A DNA stretch of 64,000 bases from a virus. The DNA is taken from positions 46,163-110,162 of IMG/VR virus record IMGVR_UViG_3300024262_000019; one strand, written 5' to 3'. Shown in pieces: positions 6,414 to 64,000 of the stretch (within the stretch, counting starts at the first letter, position 1; each line of letters starts with the position of its first letter). Position numbers and translations under genes: made by a program. The notes beneath the pieces were generated by a model, which ran no database searches, was not told the origin of the DNA, and worked only from the letters and a program-made list of their open reading frames with translations.

Positions 6414-7111
6414 CCCTGCTCACTTAGCGTCTCAATTTGATGACAATTTGCACATAGAACTGCACACTTGCCTATCTCATCCTCGATAACTGACAATGGT
6501 CTTTTTCTGTTTACCAGGAAAGCTATCGCACCAACCTTTCCATCGCCGTGAAGATGGTGAAATTCCAACATAGTTGGATCTGACTCTCCGCAGGATATGC
6601 ATGGATTGCTGGATAAATATTCAATGACGTGCCTCTGACCTACTCTTGTCGGAGGTATCTCGGAAACCTTGTAGTTATTGGACCTGATTGCAGTTCTTCT
6701 TCTGTGGCAATTTCTACAAACTACTTCACATTTTTCCATTTCAATGGAAATAGCATCCCATGACCTTGAAAAAGCACCCCTGCCAATGCCAAACCTCTTA
6801 TCCCTCAAATGATCAAACTCCAAAACACGAAAGTCATCGCGTCCACAGTCAACACATGAACTACACTTCAGTATCTCAATTATCTTTATCGATTTAGCAT
6901 TCTTATACTTGGTAGTTCTTGAGCACACGTCGGAGCTATGCCTCGTATACCTGCGACGATTGCTAGAATTCCTGCAATCTTTGCAGTGAGAAGCTCTTCC
7001 ACTTCCATCTGGCCTACGATGAAAACAATCGATATCCAGCTCCAGCTCACACTTCGTGCAAGTCTTGGCCACAACCAAACCGCCGTCATTCAGTGCAATC
7101 CTACGCTTCAT
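6365..7111 (-). CDS. Free-standing HNH endonuclease with two HNH repeats
   Basis: N-terminal CTKC...CKDC zinc finger, then twice CxxCG...LEF(D/H)HL...KCxVxCxNCH. Confidence 0.85.
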   Translation of the reverse strand: MKRRIALNDGGLVVAKTCTKCELELDIDCFHRRPDGSGRASHCKDCRNSSNRRRYTRHSSDVCSRTTKYKNAKSIKIIEILKCSSCVDCGRDDFRVLEFDHLRDKRFGIGRGAFSRSWDAISIEMEKCEVVCRNCHRRRTAIRSNNYKVSEIPPTRVGQRHVIEYLSSNPCISCGESDPTMLEFHHLHGDGKVGAIAFLVNRKRPLSVIEDEIGKCAVLCANCHQIETLSEQGWKFRSLQDTGRITPP

Positions 7112-57635: not shown

Positions 57636-58253
57636 TCAAACCAGGCTTAGCTGGCCATTCTTCACGAAGGTAATTGTACTTTCAGGAATAGCCCTGATCG
57701 CATCCCTGAACTCTCGCCTTAGACGATCTCTCGTCTTCTCATCCTTAAGCTTCACCTCATCGAAAAACATAGCCCCTGAAGTTTCGATAACTTCATCATT
57801 CAAAGTAATGAGCGTAGCCGGGCTGTGGCGTTCTTCGTTGAGGAAAAAATCCAATGCATCAGTGAAGTACATCTTCCTAGATCCATCAACGAAAGGCTTT
57901 ACCAATCCTAAGACCTCGGCAGCCATAAGTAGCTTAGAATTGAATTCCGAACATATCTCTCTTTCGATAGCCGGTATATTCTCTATGGGATTATGCTTGT
58001 TTACAAGGATAACACTCTTAGATTTCGACATAGCCCTAAGCAGATCTAACATCGCCATCATCAGCTTCTCGTTGATCGAAAACGTCACTTCCTTCTTGAG
58101 CACCTGAGCGCAGCATGGGCAGGTGCGCAAGCGCTTGCGTTCGTCTCGATCCATAACGGTAGCTTCGATATAGGGACGCTTACCGAGAGCCTCCAGGAGG
58201 CCATCGGCCTTGTCCTCCTGGACTTGCAGGATGATGGTGCGAGTTGATGTCAA
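57636..58253 (-). CDS. Hypothetical protein with CPCC motif
   Basis: 205-aa coupled ORF. Confidence 0.55.
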   Translation of the reverse strand: MTSTRTIILQVQEDKADGLLEALGKRPYIEATVMDRDERKRLRTCPCCAQVLKKEVTFSINEKLMMAMLDLLRAMSKSKSVILVNKHNPIENIPAIEREICSEFNSKLLMAAEVLGLVKPFVDGSRKMYFTDALDFFLNEERHSPATLITLNDEVIETSGAMFFDEVKLKDEKTRDRLRREFRDAIRAIPESTITFVKNGQLSLV

Positions 58254-58540
58254 TTGATGCCGCCCGGCGGCATGGCGGCTATCTGAGGGGCTCCAGGCAT
58301 GTCCTCCTCATCAACCTGCAGCTGATCGATCATGGCCTTATACTCAGCCTTATCCGGCAGCTGAGACACCTGAGTCAAGATCAACAGAAGTATGAAGAAC
58401 AAGGTTCCGGTTCCAATGTAGCTAAACCAGTCTGGACCATCGCCTGCCAGTCCGACCGTGGCAACCACCAAAAGTCCCATCAGTGCGATAACTCCAATAC
58501 CTCGTAACATTGCTGAGGACGCTATCCGTGAGATCTTCAA
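58250..58540 (-). CDS. Two-TM membrane protein
   Basis: Two hydrophobic segments. Confidence 0.55.
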   Translation of the reverse strand: MKISRIASSAMLRGIGVIALMGLLVVATVGLAGDGPDWFSYIGTGTLFFILLLILTQVSQLPDKAEYKAMIDQLQVDEEDMPGAPQIAAMPPGGIN

Positions 58541-58552
58541 TTGTCTAGGGCC

Positions 58553-58598
58553 AAAAAAAGAAAAGCCGGTGATTCCAGGGGAGGAGGAATCACCGGCT
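58553..58598 (-). terminator. Intrinsic terminator
   Basis: AGCCGGTGATTCC...GGAATCACCGGCT followed by TTTCTTTTTTT. Confidence 0.8.
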
Positions 58599-58620
58599 CA
58601 AGCATTTATTTGATCTTCAA

Positions 58621-58947
58621 CTAGCCAGCAAGGCTCATAGAGACATGCTTCTGAGGGCTTGCTGGGTTTGGCATATGGGCAATGTACTGCCCAATCCTCG
58701 CACACCGATGGCACTCGACCAGGTGATCGCTCTCCAGATCTGAGATCTTACTAGCATCTCCGATCTCAATGAGAGTGCGAGAGTCAATGCATAGAGAAGT
58801 AGGCGGAGCTTCTGCCAACTTGCGCAGATCTTTCACCGCTTGGCTGCATCCAGCGCCTTCCTTGCAGCACTGGCTTACCCAGAAGACTTCGTCTTCCGAG
58901 GCAACGCCTAGAGCCACTCGGGCTATCAGTACTCGTGTGTATTGCAT
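58621..58947 (-). CDS. Small Cys/His protein (start MQYTRV), anti-sigma zinc-finger-like motif
   Basis: GGAGGA RBS before the ATG near 58947; HLVECHRC. Confidence 0.5.
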   Translation of the reverse strand: MQYTRVLIARVALGVASEDEVFWVSQCCKEGAGCSQAVKDLRKLAEAPPTSLCIDSRTLIEIGDASKISDLESDHLVECHRCARIGQYIAHMPNPASPQKHVSMSLAG

Positions 58948-59223
58948 TTTCGTTCCTCCGCTAACCGGTAATGTTGCGATGGTTAATGTGTCAATTATAA
59001 GATCTGGACGATAAAAAGCAAGTGCTGTCGCGACTGTAAGGCGCAATACCTCCACTGAGAGGTAATACGGTGTGTGCAATTGTCCAGGTCGGCTATGTGA
59101 ACTATTAAGCAAAGCTTAAGGGTTCAGGCCAACACGCCTCGTTGAAACTGGAAGGGCATGTTGGCTTGACTGTAAAAGTCTCCTCCAACTCTGAGGCGAA
59201 AGTTGGAGGAGACACCTCTGAGG

Positions 59224-59252
59224 TTGACTATGTGAAAATGCTTTCGTAGAAT
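59224..59252 (+). promoter_or_regulatory. Sigma70 promoter of the tRNA array
   Basis: TTGACT-N17-TAGAAT, 6 nt before tRNA-Met. Confidence 0.8.
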
Positions 59253-59257
59253 GGTCG

Positions 59258-59334
<77 letters not shown>

Positions 59335-59354
59335 ATTTCAACCCAAAGAACACA

Positions 59355-59531
59355 ATGTCCTCCTTATCCATCAAACATACGCAACCCACCGCCAAGAGCA
59401 CAAGCTCATGGCAACTGGGGAATATTGTGTCGTGTCTGAATGCGGTAGTCGGCTTGGAAACAGAGTATCTCTTTGGACTTAGCACCCAGGCCCGCGCAAA
59501 TGATCCGAAGCAAAGGGTGGCTTTCACATAA
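59355..59531 (+). CDS. 58-aa putative leader peptide
   Basis: MSSLSIKHTQPTAKSTSSWQLGNIVSCLNAVVGLETEYLFGLSTQARANDPKQRVAFT; the last codons overlap the antiterminator arm; SD is weak. Confidence 0.55.
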   Translation: MSSLSIKHTQPTAKSTSSWQLGNIVSCLNAVVGLETEYLFGLSTQARANDPKQRVAFT

Positions 59532-59589
59532 GTAACTAATCAAAATTACTTATAGATGAGCCACCCAGGGAAACCAGGGTGGCTTTTTT
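59515..59589 (+). terminator. Attenuator-like terminator with mutually exclusive antiterminator
   Basis: GAGCCACCC (59558-66) can pair with GGGTGGCTT at 59577 (terminator followed by a U-tract) or with GGGTGGCTT at 59515. Confidence 0.8.
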
Positions 59590-59596
59590 AGTTTCT

Positions 59597-59680
59597 GGGT
59601 GTGTTGGGCAGGCGGTGAGCCCACTTGACTGTAAATCAAACGCTTCGGCTTTAGTGGTTCGATTCCACTCACGCCCACCA
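59597..59680 (+). tRNA. tRNA-Tyr(GTA)
   Basis: CTGTAAA loop, long variable arm, GTTCGATTC, ACCA. Confidence 0.9.
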
Positions 59681-59743
59681 GAGAAAAAGGAAATGAAAAT
59701 GACAGAAACCAAACGAAAACATAGGCTTACTCCATATATTTAT

Positions 59744-59815
59744 GGGCCTATGGCGCAATGGTAGCGCATCTGACTTTTAATCAGGTGGTTCTCAGTTCGA
59801 ATCTGAGTGGGCCCA
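59744..59815 (+). tRNA. tRNA-Lys(TTT)
   Basis: TCTGA-CTTTTAA-TCAGG arm, GTTCGAATC. Confidence 0.9.
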
Positions 59816-59823
59816 CCGACTGA

Positions 59824-59897
59824 TCGGGGATCGTCTAACGGTAGGACGGTAGTTTCTGAAGCTGCTTACCAAGGTTCGAATCCTTGTCCCCGAACCA
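59824..59897 (+). tRNA. tRNA-Gln(CTG)
   Basis: TTCTGAA loop, GTTCGAATC, ACCA. Confidence 0.85.
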
Positions 59898-60045
59898 AGC
59901 TGAAGTATTTGTGACACGAGAGTTAGCCAATGGCTGCGAGGGTGAACGGTACTATCGGCAGAAAAAGACCTCACATCGGTGGGGCAAAAAGATCTGATAA
60001 TTGAATAGTTTACGATGCAGGGGCGTTAGCCGCGCCCCTTTTTAT

Positions 60046-60122
60046 GCCCCGATAGCTCAGACTGGTAGAGCAGTGGTTTGAAGAACCGCGTGTCGGCAGT
60101 TCAATTCTGTCTCGGGGCACCA
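60046..60122 (+). tRNA. tRNA-Phe(GAA)
   Basis: GCCCCGA/TCGGGGC acceptor stem, TTGAAGA loop, ACCA. Confidence 0.9.
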
Positions 60123-60126
60123 TTAT

Positions 60127-60194
60127 AGGCAGCGTTCTGGGAACAGATTGATCTCCAAAGTCGATCGCGCAGAGTTCGATTCTCTGGCTGCCTG
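60127..60194 (+). tRNA. tRNA-Trp(CCA), short D arm
   Basis: AGGCAGC/GCTGCCT acceptor stem, CTCCAAA loop, GTTCGATTC. Confidence 0.75.
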
Positions 60195-60199
60195 CAAAT

Positions 60200-60272
60200 G
60201 GGTTCATGGCGCAATTGGCAGCGCATCCGGTTCTTACCCGGCAGGTTGCGAGTTCGACTCTCGCTGAGCCCA
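60200..60272 (+). tRNA. tRNA-Lys(CTT)
   Basis: GGGTTCA/TGAGCCC acceptor stem, CCGG-TTCTTAC-CCGG arm. Confidence 0.85.
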
Positions 60273-60292
60273 CTAAATGATAGAGTGATCGC

Positions 60293-60478
60293 ATGTTCGG
60301 ATCACTCGTAGAAGAGATACGGTTAGAGACCGTGAAGAAGGACACAACCAACGCCCTCCCGGCCATCATGGATAGGGGACGAAAGATCGTCACTCACATG
60401 CAGCATAGCGGGCATTACACTCGCTCTCAGCTACGTAAGATGGGACTTGAACCTAAATGGAAGAAGAAAATCGGATGA
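60293..60478 (+). CDS. Small basic protein, candidate internal head protein
   Basis: N-terminus MFGSLVEEIRLE resembles that of 61064-61249. Confidence 0.55.
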   Translation: MFGSLVEEIRLETVKKDTTNALPAIMDRGRKIVTHMQHSGHYTRSQLRKMGLEPKWKKKIG

Positions 60479-60696
60479 AAGACCCAAGACCACAGGTCGG
60501 ACTCATGCTGGCTGACCATAATTGCCCAGGTGGGAATATCTGGATCTGGACAGATGACGACGGGAAGCCGTTCATGGCCAAGTGCAGCATGTGTGACCAG
60601 GAGATCAAAGTCATGCTCGATGTTCCCAGTAGTCCAATCCTTCATGTCGTTACCGAAGAGGAACGGATTCAGAAAATCAAGAGCATGGCTATCTAG
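60475..60696 (+). CDS. Small Zn-ribbon-like protein (start MKDPRP)
   Basis: ATGA overlap with the upstream ORF; HNC...CSMC. Confidence 0.5.
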   Translation: MKDPRPQVGLMLADHNCPGGNIWIWTDDDGKPFMAKCSMCDQEIKVMLDVPSSPILHVVTEEERIQKIKSMAI

Positions 60697-60785
60697 GAAG
60701 CGCTAGCCGACAGCTGGCGACGGCAACCGGCTCGAACCCGGTCGAGGCTTAATCGCCCTTAGGAGTTCGACCCTCCTCGCTTCCG
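60696..60785 (+). tRNA. tRNA-Ser(CGA)
   Basis: GGAAGCG/CGCTTCC acceptor stem, ACCGG-CTCGAAC-CCGGT arm, long variable arm. Confidence 0.88.
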
Positions 60786-61016
60786 CTACTCTTTAGCAGC
60801 TGGCATCACTGGCTTCTCATCGTCCTTGGCAGCCGGCATGGCGTCCATGGATACGGCAGGGCCAGCATCGGCTGGAGCGACAGGCATAGCGTCCATGAGG
60901 GTGGCAGGAGCTTCTACGGTAGGGGTAGCACTGGCTGCGTCATCTGTGACAGCCTTCTTCTGAGAGGAGCTGCAGCTGAGGGCGAGAATGGCCGTTAGGG
61001 CAAATAAGAATTTCAT
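60786..61016 (-). CDS. Small lipoprotein
   Basis: Signal peptide with lipobox LALSC, Ala/Pro-rich tail. Confidence 0.7.
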   Translation of the reverse strand: MKFLFALTAILALSCSSSQKKAVTDDAASATPTVEAPATLMDAMPVAPADAGPAVSMDAMPAAKDDEKPVMPAAKE

Positions 61017-61063
61017 GGAGAGCTTCTACCGCATAAGCGATAGATCTTGCAACCATCCACCAG

Positions 61064-61249
61064 CTAGCGCTCTTGAGCAGCCTTCTTGCCCTGCTGGCGA
61101 GTGGCCTTCTTCAGGGCCTTAAGGGCTGCCTGCTTCTCTCCAGGGGAAGTCATTCGACCTCGATAGCTGTGAGGCTGGCTGACTTTTGGTTGAGAGCCGC
61201 CACCCTGGGCAGACTCGACTCTGATGGCTTCAATCAACTGCTGGAACAT
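61064..61249 (-). CDS. Small basic protein, candidate internal head protein
   Basis: MFQQLIEAIRVE leader followed by a K/A/Q-rich body. Confidence 0.55.
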   Translation of the reverse strand: MFQQLIEAIRVESAQGGGSQPKVSQPHSYRGRMTSPGEKQAALKALKKATRQQGKKAAQER

Positions 61250-61278
61250 GCCAGCGACTCTACAACAATTTTATATTT

Positions 61279-61353
61279 GGTGCCGGAAGAGGCTGGGTCA
61301 TCGACTTCACTGTCTATGAAGTAAGGGGGGTTCAATTCCCCTCGGCACCGCCA
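61279..61353 (+). tRNA. tRNA-Asp(GTC)
   Basis: GGTGCCG/CGGCACC acceptor stem, CTTCA-CTGTCTA-TGAAG arm, GCCA. Confidence 0.82.
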
Positions 61354-61647
61354 ATTATTCACGAATATTCAGGTATAACGATCATCTGAAAACACGGTTA
61401 TGCATGAATATTCATGAATAACGATTGATCCAGGGTGGGACCTGGTGAGGCTATAGCCCGACACAATAGTCCTCTCACTGCAACTAACTCCTCAGTTGAT
61501 GTTGCACGGAGGGGTGAAGGTTGGGAGCGATTACGGAGCTGAGGGCAACGTAGCGCGTCTAGCTGGAGTTCTGAGGGGGATACCCCGTTGAGGAAAACCA
61601 AAACCCACGACCTGGCAGGGGTAACTCGGTCAGGTCGTTAAATTTTC

Positions 61648-61716
61648 GGGGTGAGCGGCGGGCCGCAGCCGATCCTTGCAAGATCAGCTTCCTGGGTTCA
61701 ACTCCCAGTCATTCCA
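61648..61716 (+). tRNA. tRNA-Ala(TGC), divergent
   Basis: G3:U70 pair, GATC-CTTGCAA-GATC arm, GTTCAACTC. Confidence 0.7.
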
Positions 61717-61720
61717 CTAC

Positions 61721-61794
61721 GGGGTTATCGTCCAACGGTAAGACACGGGTCTGGCAGACCTGGGATCAGAGTTCGATTCTCTGTAGCTCCACCA
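61721..61794 (+). tRNA. tRNA-Ala(GGC)
   Basis: G3:U70 pair, CTGGCAG loop, ACCA. Confidence 0.88.
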
Positions 61795-61824
61795 GCATTG
61801 ACAATAGGCGCCTAAGCGAATGAA

Positions 61825-62241
61825 ATGCGGACCATGGCTGACACAGACAAAACACTCACCAATACGATTCTTACGGCTGGCAAGGTCACTGCGAGTGGCA
61901 GTATCTACCCCAAGGAAGTCCTTGAGAAGGCCGTCCGTGAGTATGCTGAGAGGCCCGGCGACAGCTACGGTGGAGTAGAAGATGGCCTGCCACTCAGCCT
62001 GGGCAAGGTCACCCATAGAATCACGGATGTCAGAATGGACGGCGACGATGTGATCGCCTCGGCAGTCATCATGGACACGCCGGAAGGCATGAAGATTAAG
62101 GCGATGCTTGAGAATGGTGGGGATGATCGAATATCTCTCTCATCCAAGGGCTATGGCCGCACTGATGAGAATGGAACGATCGACAGGTTCAGCCTCGACT
62201 CCATCAACATCAGCTTAGATCCTGGAAAGGCAAGCCAATAG
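61825..62241 (+). CDS. Second, degenerate gp21-like prohead protease homolog
   Basis: IYPKEVLEKAV, KVTHRI, IMDTPEG..IKAML, LSSKGYG; the GELxHP motif is replaced by GGVEDG. Confidence 0.75.
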   Translation: MRTMADTDKTLTNTILTAGKVTASGSIYPKEVLEKAVREYAERPGDSYGGVEDGLPLSLGKVTHRITDVRMDGDDVIASAVIMDTPEGMKIKAMLENGGDDRISLSSKGYGRTDENGTIDRFSLDSINISLDPGKASQ

Positions 62242-62316
62242 CCGGCGATGGCACTTCTCTGCTAAAGAAGCGAGCCCGAAAGGGCCTTGCGAGTTCGACC
62301 CTCGTCCTTTCCGCCA
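62224..62316 (+). tRNA. tRNA-Ser(GCT)
   Basis: GGAAAGG/CCTTTCC acceptor stem, CTGCTAA loop, long variable arm, GCCA. Confidence 0.88.
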
Positions 62317-62344
62317 CGCAAGCGCTTGCGCAGATAACAATTTA

Positions 62345-62419
62345 CGGAGTGTAGGGTAGTGGTGACCCACTTGGTTTGGGACCAAGTCAACGCAGGTTCG
62401 AATCCTGTCACTCCGACCA
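62345..62419 (+). tRNA. tRNA-Pro(TGG)
   Basis: CGGAGTG/CACTCCG acceptor stem, CTTGG-TTTGGGA-CCAAG arm, ACCA. Confidence 0.9.
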
Positions 62420-62423
62420 ATTT

Positions 62424-62499
62424 GCGGCTGTAGCTCATCTGGTAGAGCGCTTCGTTGCCAACGAAGAGGTAGCGGGATCGTACCCCGCCAGCCGCTCCA
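62424..62499 (+). tRNA. tRNA-Gly(GCC)
   Basis: GCGGCTG/CAGCCGC acceptor stem, TTGCCAA loop, TCCA. Confidence 0.88.
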
Positions 62500-62504
62500 A
62501 TTAT

Positions 62505-62579
62505 GGCGAGTGTAGCTCAATGGTAGAGCATCCGGTTGTGGTCCGGACGACGAGGGATCGATACCCTTCACCCGCCCCA
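62505..62579 (+). tRNA. tRNA-His(GTG)
   Basis: G-1 and C73, TCCGG-TTGTGGT-CCGGA arm, CCCA. Confidence 0.88.
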
Positions 62580-62624
62580 ATTTATTGACAATGGGATTCA
62601 GATCTATAGAGTGGTCCGCTACCT

Positions 62625-62861
62625 ATGACTATAGATATCCCTATATGGATGGCAGCTGCGATATCTATCGTAGCCTTCTTTGGCTACATGGCTATAGGGC
62701 TGATCGTCACCCTTGAGACAGATCGTCTCAAAATGGGAAGTCTTGATGAGAAGTTCATCATCCCTATCCTGGTCACATGGCCAGTCACTATTCCCGTATT
62801 GCTCATGCTGGAAACCTGGGCCAAGAGGCGACGGGAAGAGAACAAGCTAAACGGACTATAA
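62625..62861 (+). CDS. Two-TM membrane protein
   Basis: Two hydrophobic segments; TTGACAAT promoter at 62585. Confidence 0.55.
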   Translation: MTIDIPIWMAAAISIVAFFGYMAIGLIVTLETDRLKMGSLDEKFIIPILVTWPVTIPVLLMLETWAKRRREENKLNGL

Positions 62862-62864
62862 TTT

Positions 62865-62892
62865 GCGGGTATCGTCTAACGGTAGGGCCTCG
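62865..62892 (+). pseudogene. 5' fragment of a tRNA-Gly-like gene
   Basis: GCGGGTA-TC-GTCTAACGGTAGGGC-CTC is an acceptor 5' strand plus D arm, with no anticodon or T arm following. Confidence 0.6.
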
Positions 62893-62916
62893 TAGGATCT
62901 GCTACCATACTCCTGT

Positions 62917-63648
62917 ATGGGAAATGGCAAATGTAAATACTGCGGCTTCGATCTCCCTGGGGGAAGGATGTCCGGGGCTCATATAACTAATTGCAGTGAA
63001 AATCCGAACCGTCATGCAATTCGTAAAAAGATAGCAAAGTCAGCAACGAAGAGGATCCCATTTACCCTGGACTGCAGCGTTTGTTATGAGCCATATGTAC
63101 AGGAGATCACGCCAAAGGCTCTAGAGAATGGTCGCTACAAGAAATGCTGTTCGCTTGTGTGCTCATCATCTATAGGACAGAGGGCCAGCAGAAGGAATAG
63201 GGAAGAGCTTGCCAAATTTGGTGTTGATGGTCGCCGGTGTGGCTGCGGGGAGAGGAAGGCTAGAAGATCTAAGAGCTGCCAGTTGTGCTCAAGGAAGAAA
63301 TTGCTAATTGCATCCTTGCAGGAAACGCTGGGGAGTCTCAAAGGTAAAGCCAAAGGTCGGGCTAGGCATATGTTCCAAGGTGTACGGAATAATGCCCATA
63401 GGGTTGTTGATATACTCAATGTTGGATCATTGAATTCATGTAGGAGGGCAGGGTGTGAATACAAGGTTCACGCCGAGCTTGCACATCTCAGGGATATATC
63501 AAGCTTCCCTGACTCAGCCATTCTTGGCGAGATCAACGATACTAAGAACCTGGCATTGCTATGCAGGAATTGTCACTGGGAATATGACAATGGTCTTATC
63601 GGAGACGGAGAGATTATATCGATTTTTGATATCGCTGGGGTGGTGTAA
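62917..63648 (+). CDS. HNH endonuclease with N-terminal Zn fingers
   Basis: ELAHLRDISSF...EINDTKNLALLCRNCHWEYD; several CxxC motifs. Confidence 0.85.
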   Translation: MGNGKCKYCGFDLPGGRMSGAHITNCSENPNRHAIRKKIAKSATKRIPFTLDCSVCYEPYVQEITPKALENGRYKKCCSLVCSSSIGQRASRRNREELAKFGVDGRRCGCGERKARRSKSCQLCSRKKLLIASLQETLGSLKGKAKGRARHMFQGVRNNAHRVVDILNVGSLNSCRRAGCEYKVHAELAHLRDISSFPDSAILGEINDTKNLALLCRNCHWEYDNGLIGDGEIISIFDIAGVV

Positions 63649-63704
63649 CGGCAACACGAGTGGCTTCCATCCACTTATCGAGGGTTCGAATCCCTTCCCC
63701 AGCT
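63634..63704 (+). tRNA. tRNA-Gly(TCC)
   Basis: GCTGGGG/CCCCAGC acceptor stem, AGTGG-CTTCCAT-CCACT arm, GTTCGAATC. Confidence 0.88.
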
Positions 63705-63742
63705 CTAATTGACAATAGGCCAACCGTAGCTACGGTAGCCTG

Positions 63743-64000
63743 ATGGAAAATACAGAAGCAGAAATTGTTCATCGGCCCGAGCTAACCATCAGGGAAGTCC
63801 TGGTCACATCGGAGGTTCCAGTGCGCGACAAATCATTTGAATTCGTCACTGGCGGTAGCCGGCTCATGAAGAAAGCCAGTTTCGCAGTGAACACTGAGAC
63901 CTGGGAATGCAAAGGTGAGGTCGCTGGAGAGATCTTTGCCGACGAGAAATGGTGGGCCGACCAATGTCAGCGAGTCTCAGACCGAGTTCGCGCCAGCATT
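63743..64000 (+). CDS. Hypothetical protein, runs off the window
   Basis: ATG at 63743 (MENTEAEIVHRPEL...) behind a TTGACAAT promoter at 63709. Confidence 0.45.
   Translation, partial: MENTEAEIVHRPELTIREVLVTSEVPVRDKSFEFVTGGSRLMKKASFAVNTETWECKGEVAGEIFADEKWWADQCQRVSDRVRASI

Follow-up and report, generated by a model that had tools for sequence, protein, structure and literature searches.

A short open reading frame and an intrinsic terminator lie between the first gene of a phage tRNA array and the genes that follow it. This arrangement raises three questions: whether the parts form a switch, what would operate such a switch, and how much of the array it would control. An earlier note, made from the sequence of this stretch, had proposed a leader-peptide attenuator that gates the array and possibly senses damage to the tRNA pool. 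The proposal was followed up by comparison with related loci, by folding of the leader RNA and by counts of its codon content against several null models. The alternative structures, the reading frame, the position of its stop and its amino-acid content were all established by sequence comparison. Positions are those of the analysed stretch of 64,000 nt, hereafter the window.

Genome setting and layout of the locus

The window covers the final 64 kb of a virus contig of 110,162 bp, from an uncultured large phage. Among the products of the contig are a T4-type portal and a DnaB helicase, with inteins in both, and also a ParB-like protein. Up to ~59100 nearly all genes run leftward, and from 59258 a rightward tRNA array begins, in which 13 genes were called with ARAGORN between 59258 and the contig end. 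In a collection of cultured phages no protein exceeded about 31% identity to the neighbouring protein of 442 aa, and on this measure no cultured phage is close. The last leftward gene is separated from the tRNA promoter by a strong hairpin at 59172-59214 (CTCCTCCAACT ... AGTTGGAGGAG), which probably terminates the leftward unit; it gave a sub-threshold Rfam match only and was not conserved in L001, one of the relatives described below.

The order of promoter, tRNA-fMet, 58-codon ORF, terminator and further tRNAs was taken from the earlier note, and every coordinate in it checked out. The features of the leader region are collected in Table 1. The three arms that compete in the switch are numbered 2, 3 and 4 from 5' to 3'.

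Table 1. Features of the leader region in the window
Feature	Position	Strand	Remark
Sigma-70-type promoter, TTGACT-17-TAGAAT	59224..59252	+	TTGAC(T/A)-N17-TAGnnT in 7/7 homologous leaders
Initiator-like tRNA-Met(CAT), upstream of the switch	59258..59334	+	Present in 6/7, absent in L011
Short A/C-rich 5' untranslated stretch, without Shine-Dalgarno	59335..59354	+	
Leader ORF, ATG start, 58 codons + TAA	59355..59531	+	20 amino acids, 43 distinct codons
Hairpin H1, GAGC-ACAA-GCTC	59396..59407	+	CGAGC-N4-GCTCG in relatives
H2 5' strand, candidate long-range helix	59419..59441	+	From RNAalifold on the leader alignment
H2 3' strand, CCCAGGC ... GCAAATGATCC	59484..59506	+	Encodes the conserved QA(R/K)ANDP block
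Arm 2, antiterminator 5' arm, GGGTGGCTT	59515..59523	+	Within the last codons of the ORF
Antiterminator inner stem-loop, ATAAGTAA/TTACTTAT	59528..59553	+	Stem 59528-35/59546-53; stop codon in 5' half
Leader stop codon	59529-31	+	
Arm 3, (G)AGCCACCC	59558..59566	+	Common to antiterminator and terminator
Arm 4 (GGGTGGCT) and intrinsic-terminator T-tract	59577..59589	+	Arm 4 repeat at 59577-85
First tRNA block after the switch: Tyr(GTA), Lys(TTT), Gln(CTG)	59597..59897	+	Same order in relatives

The contig stops inside the array. In relatives the array runs on for ~25 kb and holds 38, 44 or 47 tRNAs on one strand, which serve 19-20 amino acids and 51-59 of the 61 sense codons. Two further tRNA-like stretches in the window, 60126-60194 and 61278-61350, were missed by ARAGORN and gave weak matches to the Rfam tRNA clan; the first has a CCA anticodon loop and lies at the place of tRNA-Trp(CCA) in L001. 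With these two beside the 13 genes called, the array in the window probably comprises 15 tRNA genes. At equivalent places in the arrays of three relatives (L067:9536, L068:7824, L070:12464) ARAGORN called tRNA-like genes with four-letter anticodons (ctcg, taag), which may be tRNAs with 8-nt anticodon loops.

Homologous leaders in related phages

Related loci were found with an alignment (A2) built from homologues of the neighbouring protein, used as the query. The leader layout recurred in L001, L007 (= L051), L050, L008 (= L009/L052/L053), L013 and L011. It consists of the promoter, a tRNA-Met (missing in L011), a leader of ~260 nt, the terminator and tRNA-Tyr-Lys-Gln-Phe-Lys. The window and the six relatives gave seven leaders from five lineages (window and L001; L013; L007 and L050; L008; L011), of which the four further lineages are 53-78% identical to the window in the neighbouring protein. 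In L011 (880-1430, minus strand) the promoter stands directly before the leader, no tRNA-Met lies between them, and ~130 extra nt with a second terminator-like hairpin separate the switch from tRNA-Tyr.

The leader element was not present in one complete relative (G003, 197 kb, locus L049). The head of its array is rearranged (L049:6560-7090, minus strand): a tRNA-Met was called there with a length of 94 nt, and the sequence after it is unrelated and resembles an inserted antisense gene.

A profile search of 1.84 billion proteins returned three more full-length called homologues of the leader peptide, P0122 (58 aa), P0123 (60 aa) and P0126 (44 aa), and a further one, P0125, whose call is truncated at the N terminus. 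A word-based protein search with the leader peptide as query gave no match. Pattern scans of viral contigs gave nothing beyond the same five contigs, apart from chance matches; L004 and L055-57 were judged by eye to be chance, and L071-L126 were discarded likewise, none of them fitting model R1. A scan of genome contigs gave one distant, uninformative match. No second copy of the leader was found with model R1 in the window, in the records of the relatives or at the other loci.

The terminator/antiterminator switch

The repeat that forms arms 2 and 4, GGGTGGCTT, occurs exactly twice in the 64 kb (59515-23 and 59577-85), with ~0.35 copies expected; two or more copies were found in 3 of 100 shuffles. 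The segment 59500-59595 folded with z = -3.47 against shuffles. Two alternative partners had been claimed for arm 3, and in the window the calculated energies were -22.8 kcal/mol for arm 2:3 and -20.3 kcal/mol for arm 3:4, the latter with a GAAA terminator loop and a T6 tract at 59584-89. Both helices can form in 7/7 leaders, with energies of -17 to -29 kcal/mol for arm 2:3 and -17 to -26 kcal/mol for arm 3:4, and in all seven the arm 2:3 helix stacks on the inner hairpin.

The arm sequences vary by lineage and both pairings are retained. Between the window and L001, a T insertion in arm 3 is offset by an A-to-G change in arm 2 and in arm 4; when the lineages are compared, arm 3 shows an A-to-T change for which arm 2 and arm 4 each have a matching change. 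Compensatory changes, from A-U to G-C at two pairs, were also found in the inner stem. Homologues therefore keep the upstream arm together with the terminator and not the terminator alone, and changes in arm 3 are matched on both sides, as the proposed switch predicts. In the antiterminator 78% of cells were paired, with a covariation score of 0.286 vs 0.177 when shuffled (2/500 as high; slid controls 0.03-0.15). In the terminator 95% of cells were paired, with a score of 0.346 vs 0.149 (0/500 as high). The scores come from model-fitted alignments of DNA from five lineages with few events, and because such alignments lean towards the model and the lineages are few, the numbers are supportive rather than decisive.

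Folding of the complete leader agreed with the predicted direction of the switch. For the window, the antiterminator had P = 0.94 in the naked full leader, and masking of a ribosome footprint at the stop turned the fold to the terminator with P = 1.0. At equilibrium the naked full leader favoured the antiterminator in 6/7 (P 0.69-0.98); the exception was L008, in which the terminator was preferred even by naked RNA. With the footprint at the stop codon masked, the terminator was obtained in 7/7 (P 0.63-1.0). A classical pairing of region 1 with arm 2 was predicted weakly and inconsistently, and in some sequences only. Rfam searches at E ≤ 1 over 58000-64000 returned tRNAs and sub-threshold noise only, with neither a T-box nor an amino-acid leader (Trp, His, Leu, Thr).

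A conserved reading frame

The sense frame of the leader is open in 7/7 copies (42-60 codons), and each of the other two sense frames contains 1-4 stops. The spacings of the anchors ATG, GCTCRTGG, CAGGCC, AATGATCC and stop take the values 46/49/52/55, 77/80/83/86, 12/15 and 24/27/30, and every difference between lineages is a multiple of 3. The changes in length number nine or more and are all in frame, for which the chance is ~(1/3)^9 if lengths were unconstrained. Counted from the start of arm 2, the stop codon begins 14-15 nt downstream in 6/7 leaders and 10 nt downstream in L011, a spacing that falls within the footprint of a terminating ribosome. The position of ORF and stop relative to the switch, which the earlier note had asked to see conserved, is thus kept across the relatives.

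Substitutions were equally frequent at codon positions 1, 2 and 3. This indicates that the frame is kept and that most of the peptide is not under protein-level constraint, the pattern to be expected if the leader is regulatory and not if it encodes a functional small protein. The leader peptide had no Pfam or PHROG match, and a functional small protein was rejected on both counts. An antisense gene (minus-strand ORF 59291-59527) could explain the in-frame length changes and was also rejected, as the antisense frames contain stops in most relatives. A Shine-Dalgarno core of at least 4 nt before the ATG was found in 0/7 copies; one is present in 43-67% of the long genes of the phage.

Amino-acid content and codon diversity of the leader

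A recount of the window peptide agreed with the earlier figures: all 20 amino acids, 43 different codons and no run of a single amino acid. All 20 amino acids were found in 10/10 full-length leader peptides (42-60 aa), these being the seven leaders with P0122, P0123 and P0126. In 7/7 leaders, the 42-codon L011 included, the codons upstream of arm 2 already supply all 20. Windows of proteins of this phage contained all 20 in 0.3% (42 aa) to 3.8% (60 aa) of cases, and random open frames with the base composition of the leader in 0.6% to 7%. When the same branch sites were changed at random with the frame kept open, the value was 0.05-0.30 per branch, and 0.01 for L011.

The positions at which the amino acids are encoded are not fixed. 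The single Cys, His and Tyr occupy different alignment columns in different lineages, and in the close pair L007/L050 one Tyr site has disappeared and another has arisen four codons from it. Retention of all 20 while their positions drift points to selection for the presence of every amino acid. Most amino acids are present at 1-5 copies, and no run of control codons was seen.

Distinct codons numbered 39-44 across the leaders. Windows of 58 codons from genes of the phage had 33.8 ± 2.9, with 0.2% reaching the 43 of the window leader, and random open frames had 37.1 ± 2.4, with 1.1% reaching 43. The codon simulation suggested with the original proposal therefore places the leader above both gene windows and random frames. 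Matching of leader codons to the phage tRNAs was tried and was uninformative: the 89-97% covered equals the overall codon coverage of the arrays, with no enrichment. The all-20 property is the strongest argument that the frame may be decoded and may act as a gauge. Taken over the sequence comparisons as a whole, the locus appears to hold a genuine terminator/antiterminator switch, and both the switch and the reading frame for every amino acid to which it is coupled are conserved.

Proposed mechanism

From these comparisons we infer that the frame is translated, which way control runs, what the signal is and how far the gated unit extends. Host RNA polymerase would start at 59224-52 and transcribe the tRNA-Met and then the leader. 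Where arm 2 is free as arm 3 emerges, arm 2:3 would form on the inner hairpin as the antiterminator, and transcription would read through into the Tyr, Lys and Gln genes and further along the array. A ribosome at the leader stop (59529-31) would lay its footprint over arm 2, leaving arm 3 to pair with arm 4; this helix, with the U-tract, would end the transcript near 59589.

The outcome would be set by a race between a ribosome over ~58 varied codons and the polymerase over ~235 nt. A delay in decoding at almost any codon would hold the ribosome short of arm 2 and raise tRNA transcription, a sensitivity that would follow from a frame in which all 20 amino acids and an unusual number of different codons are represented. 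Candidate causes of delay are a shortage of amino acids or tRNA, tRNA damage, and inhibited or scarce ribosomes. Damage by host nucleases, which the earlier note had put forward, is one among several possible causes of slow decoding. A leader without a ribosome would be read through too.

The full mechanism, a ribosome-operated transcription attenuator that heads the phage tRNA array, is judged fairly likely from the sequences. In its general form, slower decoding by ribosomes probably causes the phage to transcribe more tRNA. A more far-reaching version is held tentatively, as a plausible reading that could well prove too broad: the leader would be a universal decoding gauge, in which selection would maintain one or a few codons per amino acid; shortage of or damage to any aminoacyl-tRNA, including cleavage by host anticodon nucleases, would raise transcription of the near-complete phage tRNA set, the gauge would then be read faster and the switch would shut, giving homeostatic feedback.

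Conserved leader structures and alternative readings

Two further structures are conserved within the frame (Table 1). H1 has an invariant stem and a variable loop, and for this reason gives no covariation; it is a candidate pause or synchronising hairpin. In H2, 84% of cells pair vs 27-46% in slid controls, with little covariation, and the helix ends just before arm 2. The leader peptide contains two conserved blocks, G(F/I)(I/F)A and QA(R/K)ANDP, and the modelled H2 offers an RNA-level reason for both. Conservation of QA(R/K)ANDP may thus lie at the level of the RNA, of the peptide, or of both, and the candidate helix may restrict which stalls count.

These observations bear on a narrower use of the same switch, in which only ribosomes stalled near QA(R/K)ANDP would matter, or the nascent peptide would respond to some factor by arresting its ribosome there, and the rest of the frame would be spacer. 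Nine homologues carry the block almost without change, P0126 having Val for the Ala that precedes NDP, and a ribosome stalled at the block would not cover arm 2; a defined control region is also a feature of classical attenuators, and the competitor of arm 2 could be concealed by H2 until the helix is unwound. Against this, AAT-GAT and its surroundings are complementary to an upstream GGnTTATTGCG, so that RNA pairing can explain the conservation, and the Asp codon of L007 and L050 lies near enough to arm 2 for a ribosome stalled on it to cover part of the arm. Narrow sensing also leaves unexplained why all 20 amino acids are retained while their positions drift, and we consider it unlikely.

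The frame itself would be untranslated or irrelevant if the switch worked by RNA only, with a protein, a small RNA or a tRNA binding the leader at H1/H2. That 0/7 copies have a Shine-Dalgarno, that H1 and H2 are conserved structured elements and that substitutions lack a third-position bias would all suit such a switch. It gives no reason for at least nine in-frame changes, for a frame open in 7/7 or for the fixed spacing of stop and arm 2, it does not account for the all-20 property, and no match to the T-box or any other Rfam family was found; an RNA-only switch is therefore improbable to a high degree.

Least probable of the readings is that there is no regulation, the locus being a small protein gene with an ordinary terminator or processing hairpin and the second pairing a by-product of a short repeat: terminators and hairpins are frequent between phage tRNA genes, for example a conserved hairpin before tRNA-Phe, and G003, a complete relative, manages without the element, but the peptide changes equally at all codon positions, unlike a functional protein, arm 2 follows the changes of arm 3 across lineages, the stop is fixed relative to arm 2 and the all-20 content is kept despite shifting positions.

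Possible extent of the gated unit

The initiator tRNA had been placed upstream of the switch, and its position and its initiator-like anticodon stem bear this out; the classical C1×A72 mismatch does not. The anticodon stem of the tRNA-Met is GGG/CCC and its D stem is GAGC, and the register given by ARAGORN has a weak U1-A72 pair in place of the mismatch. The tRNA-Met genes that precede the leader at L001:6674-6744 and L008 ~6800-6870 (-) have a shortened D arm and a G1-C72 pair, that of L008 being missed by ARAGORN at default settings, and the upstream tRNA is thus not uniformly initiator-like.

On the downstream side, the claim that the switch gates the remaining tRNAs is uncertain past the first block. 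The switch certainly lies before Tyr-Lys-Gln; it may not control the whole array. At 59994-60039, just before tRNA-Phe, a GC-rich hairpin (60019-39) comes after the motif CTGATAAYYGAATAG. Motif and hairpin are kept in six relatives, with a variable hairpin loop, and the T-tract at the hairpin is strong in the window only. The hairpin could serve in processing or pausing, or act as another terminator of lesser strength. A second promoter-like site was found at 62585-612. Given the hairpin with its T-tract and this site, the switch perhaps gates part of the array only.

Implications

If true, the attenuator would provide a mechanism by which large phages dose their tRNA arrays on demand as the decoding capacity of the host falls. 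It would bear on why phages carry tRNAs, whether for codon usage, for host shut-off or as counter-defence against tRNA nucleases. The all-20 rule offers a simple signature by which such sensors could be searched for elsewhere. A response amino acid by amino acid is also predicted by the rule: loss of the single Cys, His, Trp or Tyr codon would blind the switch to that one. A compact reporter of overall decoding speed would be a possible biosensor part.

Comparison with known systems

Ribosome-mediated attenuation is textbook knowledge for amino-acid operons, whose leader-peptide transcription attenuators include trpL, hisL, leuL and pheL and the multivalent thrL and ilvL. The phage element shares with the trp type a short leader ORF positioned by its stop, an intrinsic terminator and a mutually exclusive antiterminator that uses the 5' arm of the terminator. 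The distance from stop to terminator is similar (~60 nt), and a ribosome at the leader stop is likewise predicted to favour termination. Unlike the trp type, the phage leader has no run of control codons and contains all 20 amino acids in 39-44 different codons; its frame is long (mostly 56-60 codons), its output would be tRNA genes and not biosynthetic enzymes, and its naked RNA is predicted to read through and not to terminate. It also differs in lacking a Shine-Dalgarno and an Rfam leader match, and in being carried by a phage.

T-box riboswitches (RF00230) bind uncharged tRNA directly, and translation is not involved. The likeness lies in the choice between terminator and antiterminator by tRNA status and in a GGGTGG motif in the 5' strand of the antiterminator. 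In the phage element the UGG is inside a continuous helix (arm 2:3, no bulge) and not in a 7-nt bulge, and RF00230 gave no match at E ≤ 1 in 58000-64000. The conserved reading frame argues for a ribosome rather than tRNA sensing of the T-box type.

A literature search returned no published case of leader-peptide attenuation of tRNA genes and no published leader selected to contain every amino acid. The nearest published regulation of a tRNA array is that of the Anabaena trn operon, a silent array of 26 tRNA genes that is induced by translational stress (PMC8421152, PMC10272220). The likeness is an extra tRNA array that is turned on when translation is impaired. [quoted passage not shown]

The nearest published general sensor of decoding stress is the uORF attenuator of whiB7 in mycobacteria, in which stalling in the upstream ORF is believed to give antitermination (PMC10274678). 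[quoted passage not shown] The phage element has the same combination of an upstream ORF of mixed content, here all 20 amino acids, with a terminator and an antiterminator. The whiB7 uORF is enriched in alanine and controls a transcription factor, whereas the phage frame is balanced over the 20 amino acids and would act on tRNA genes directly.
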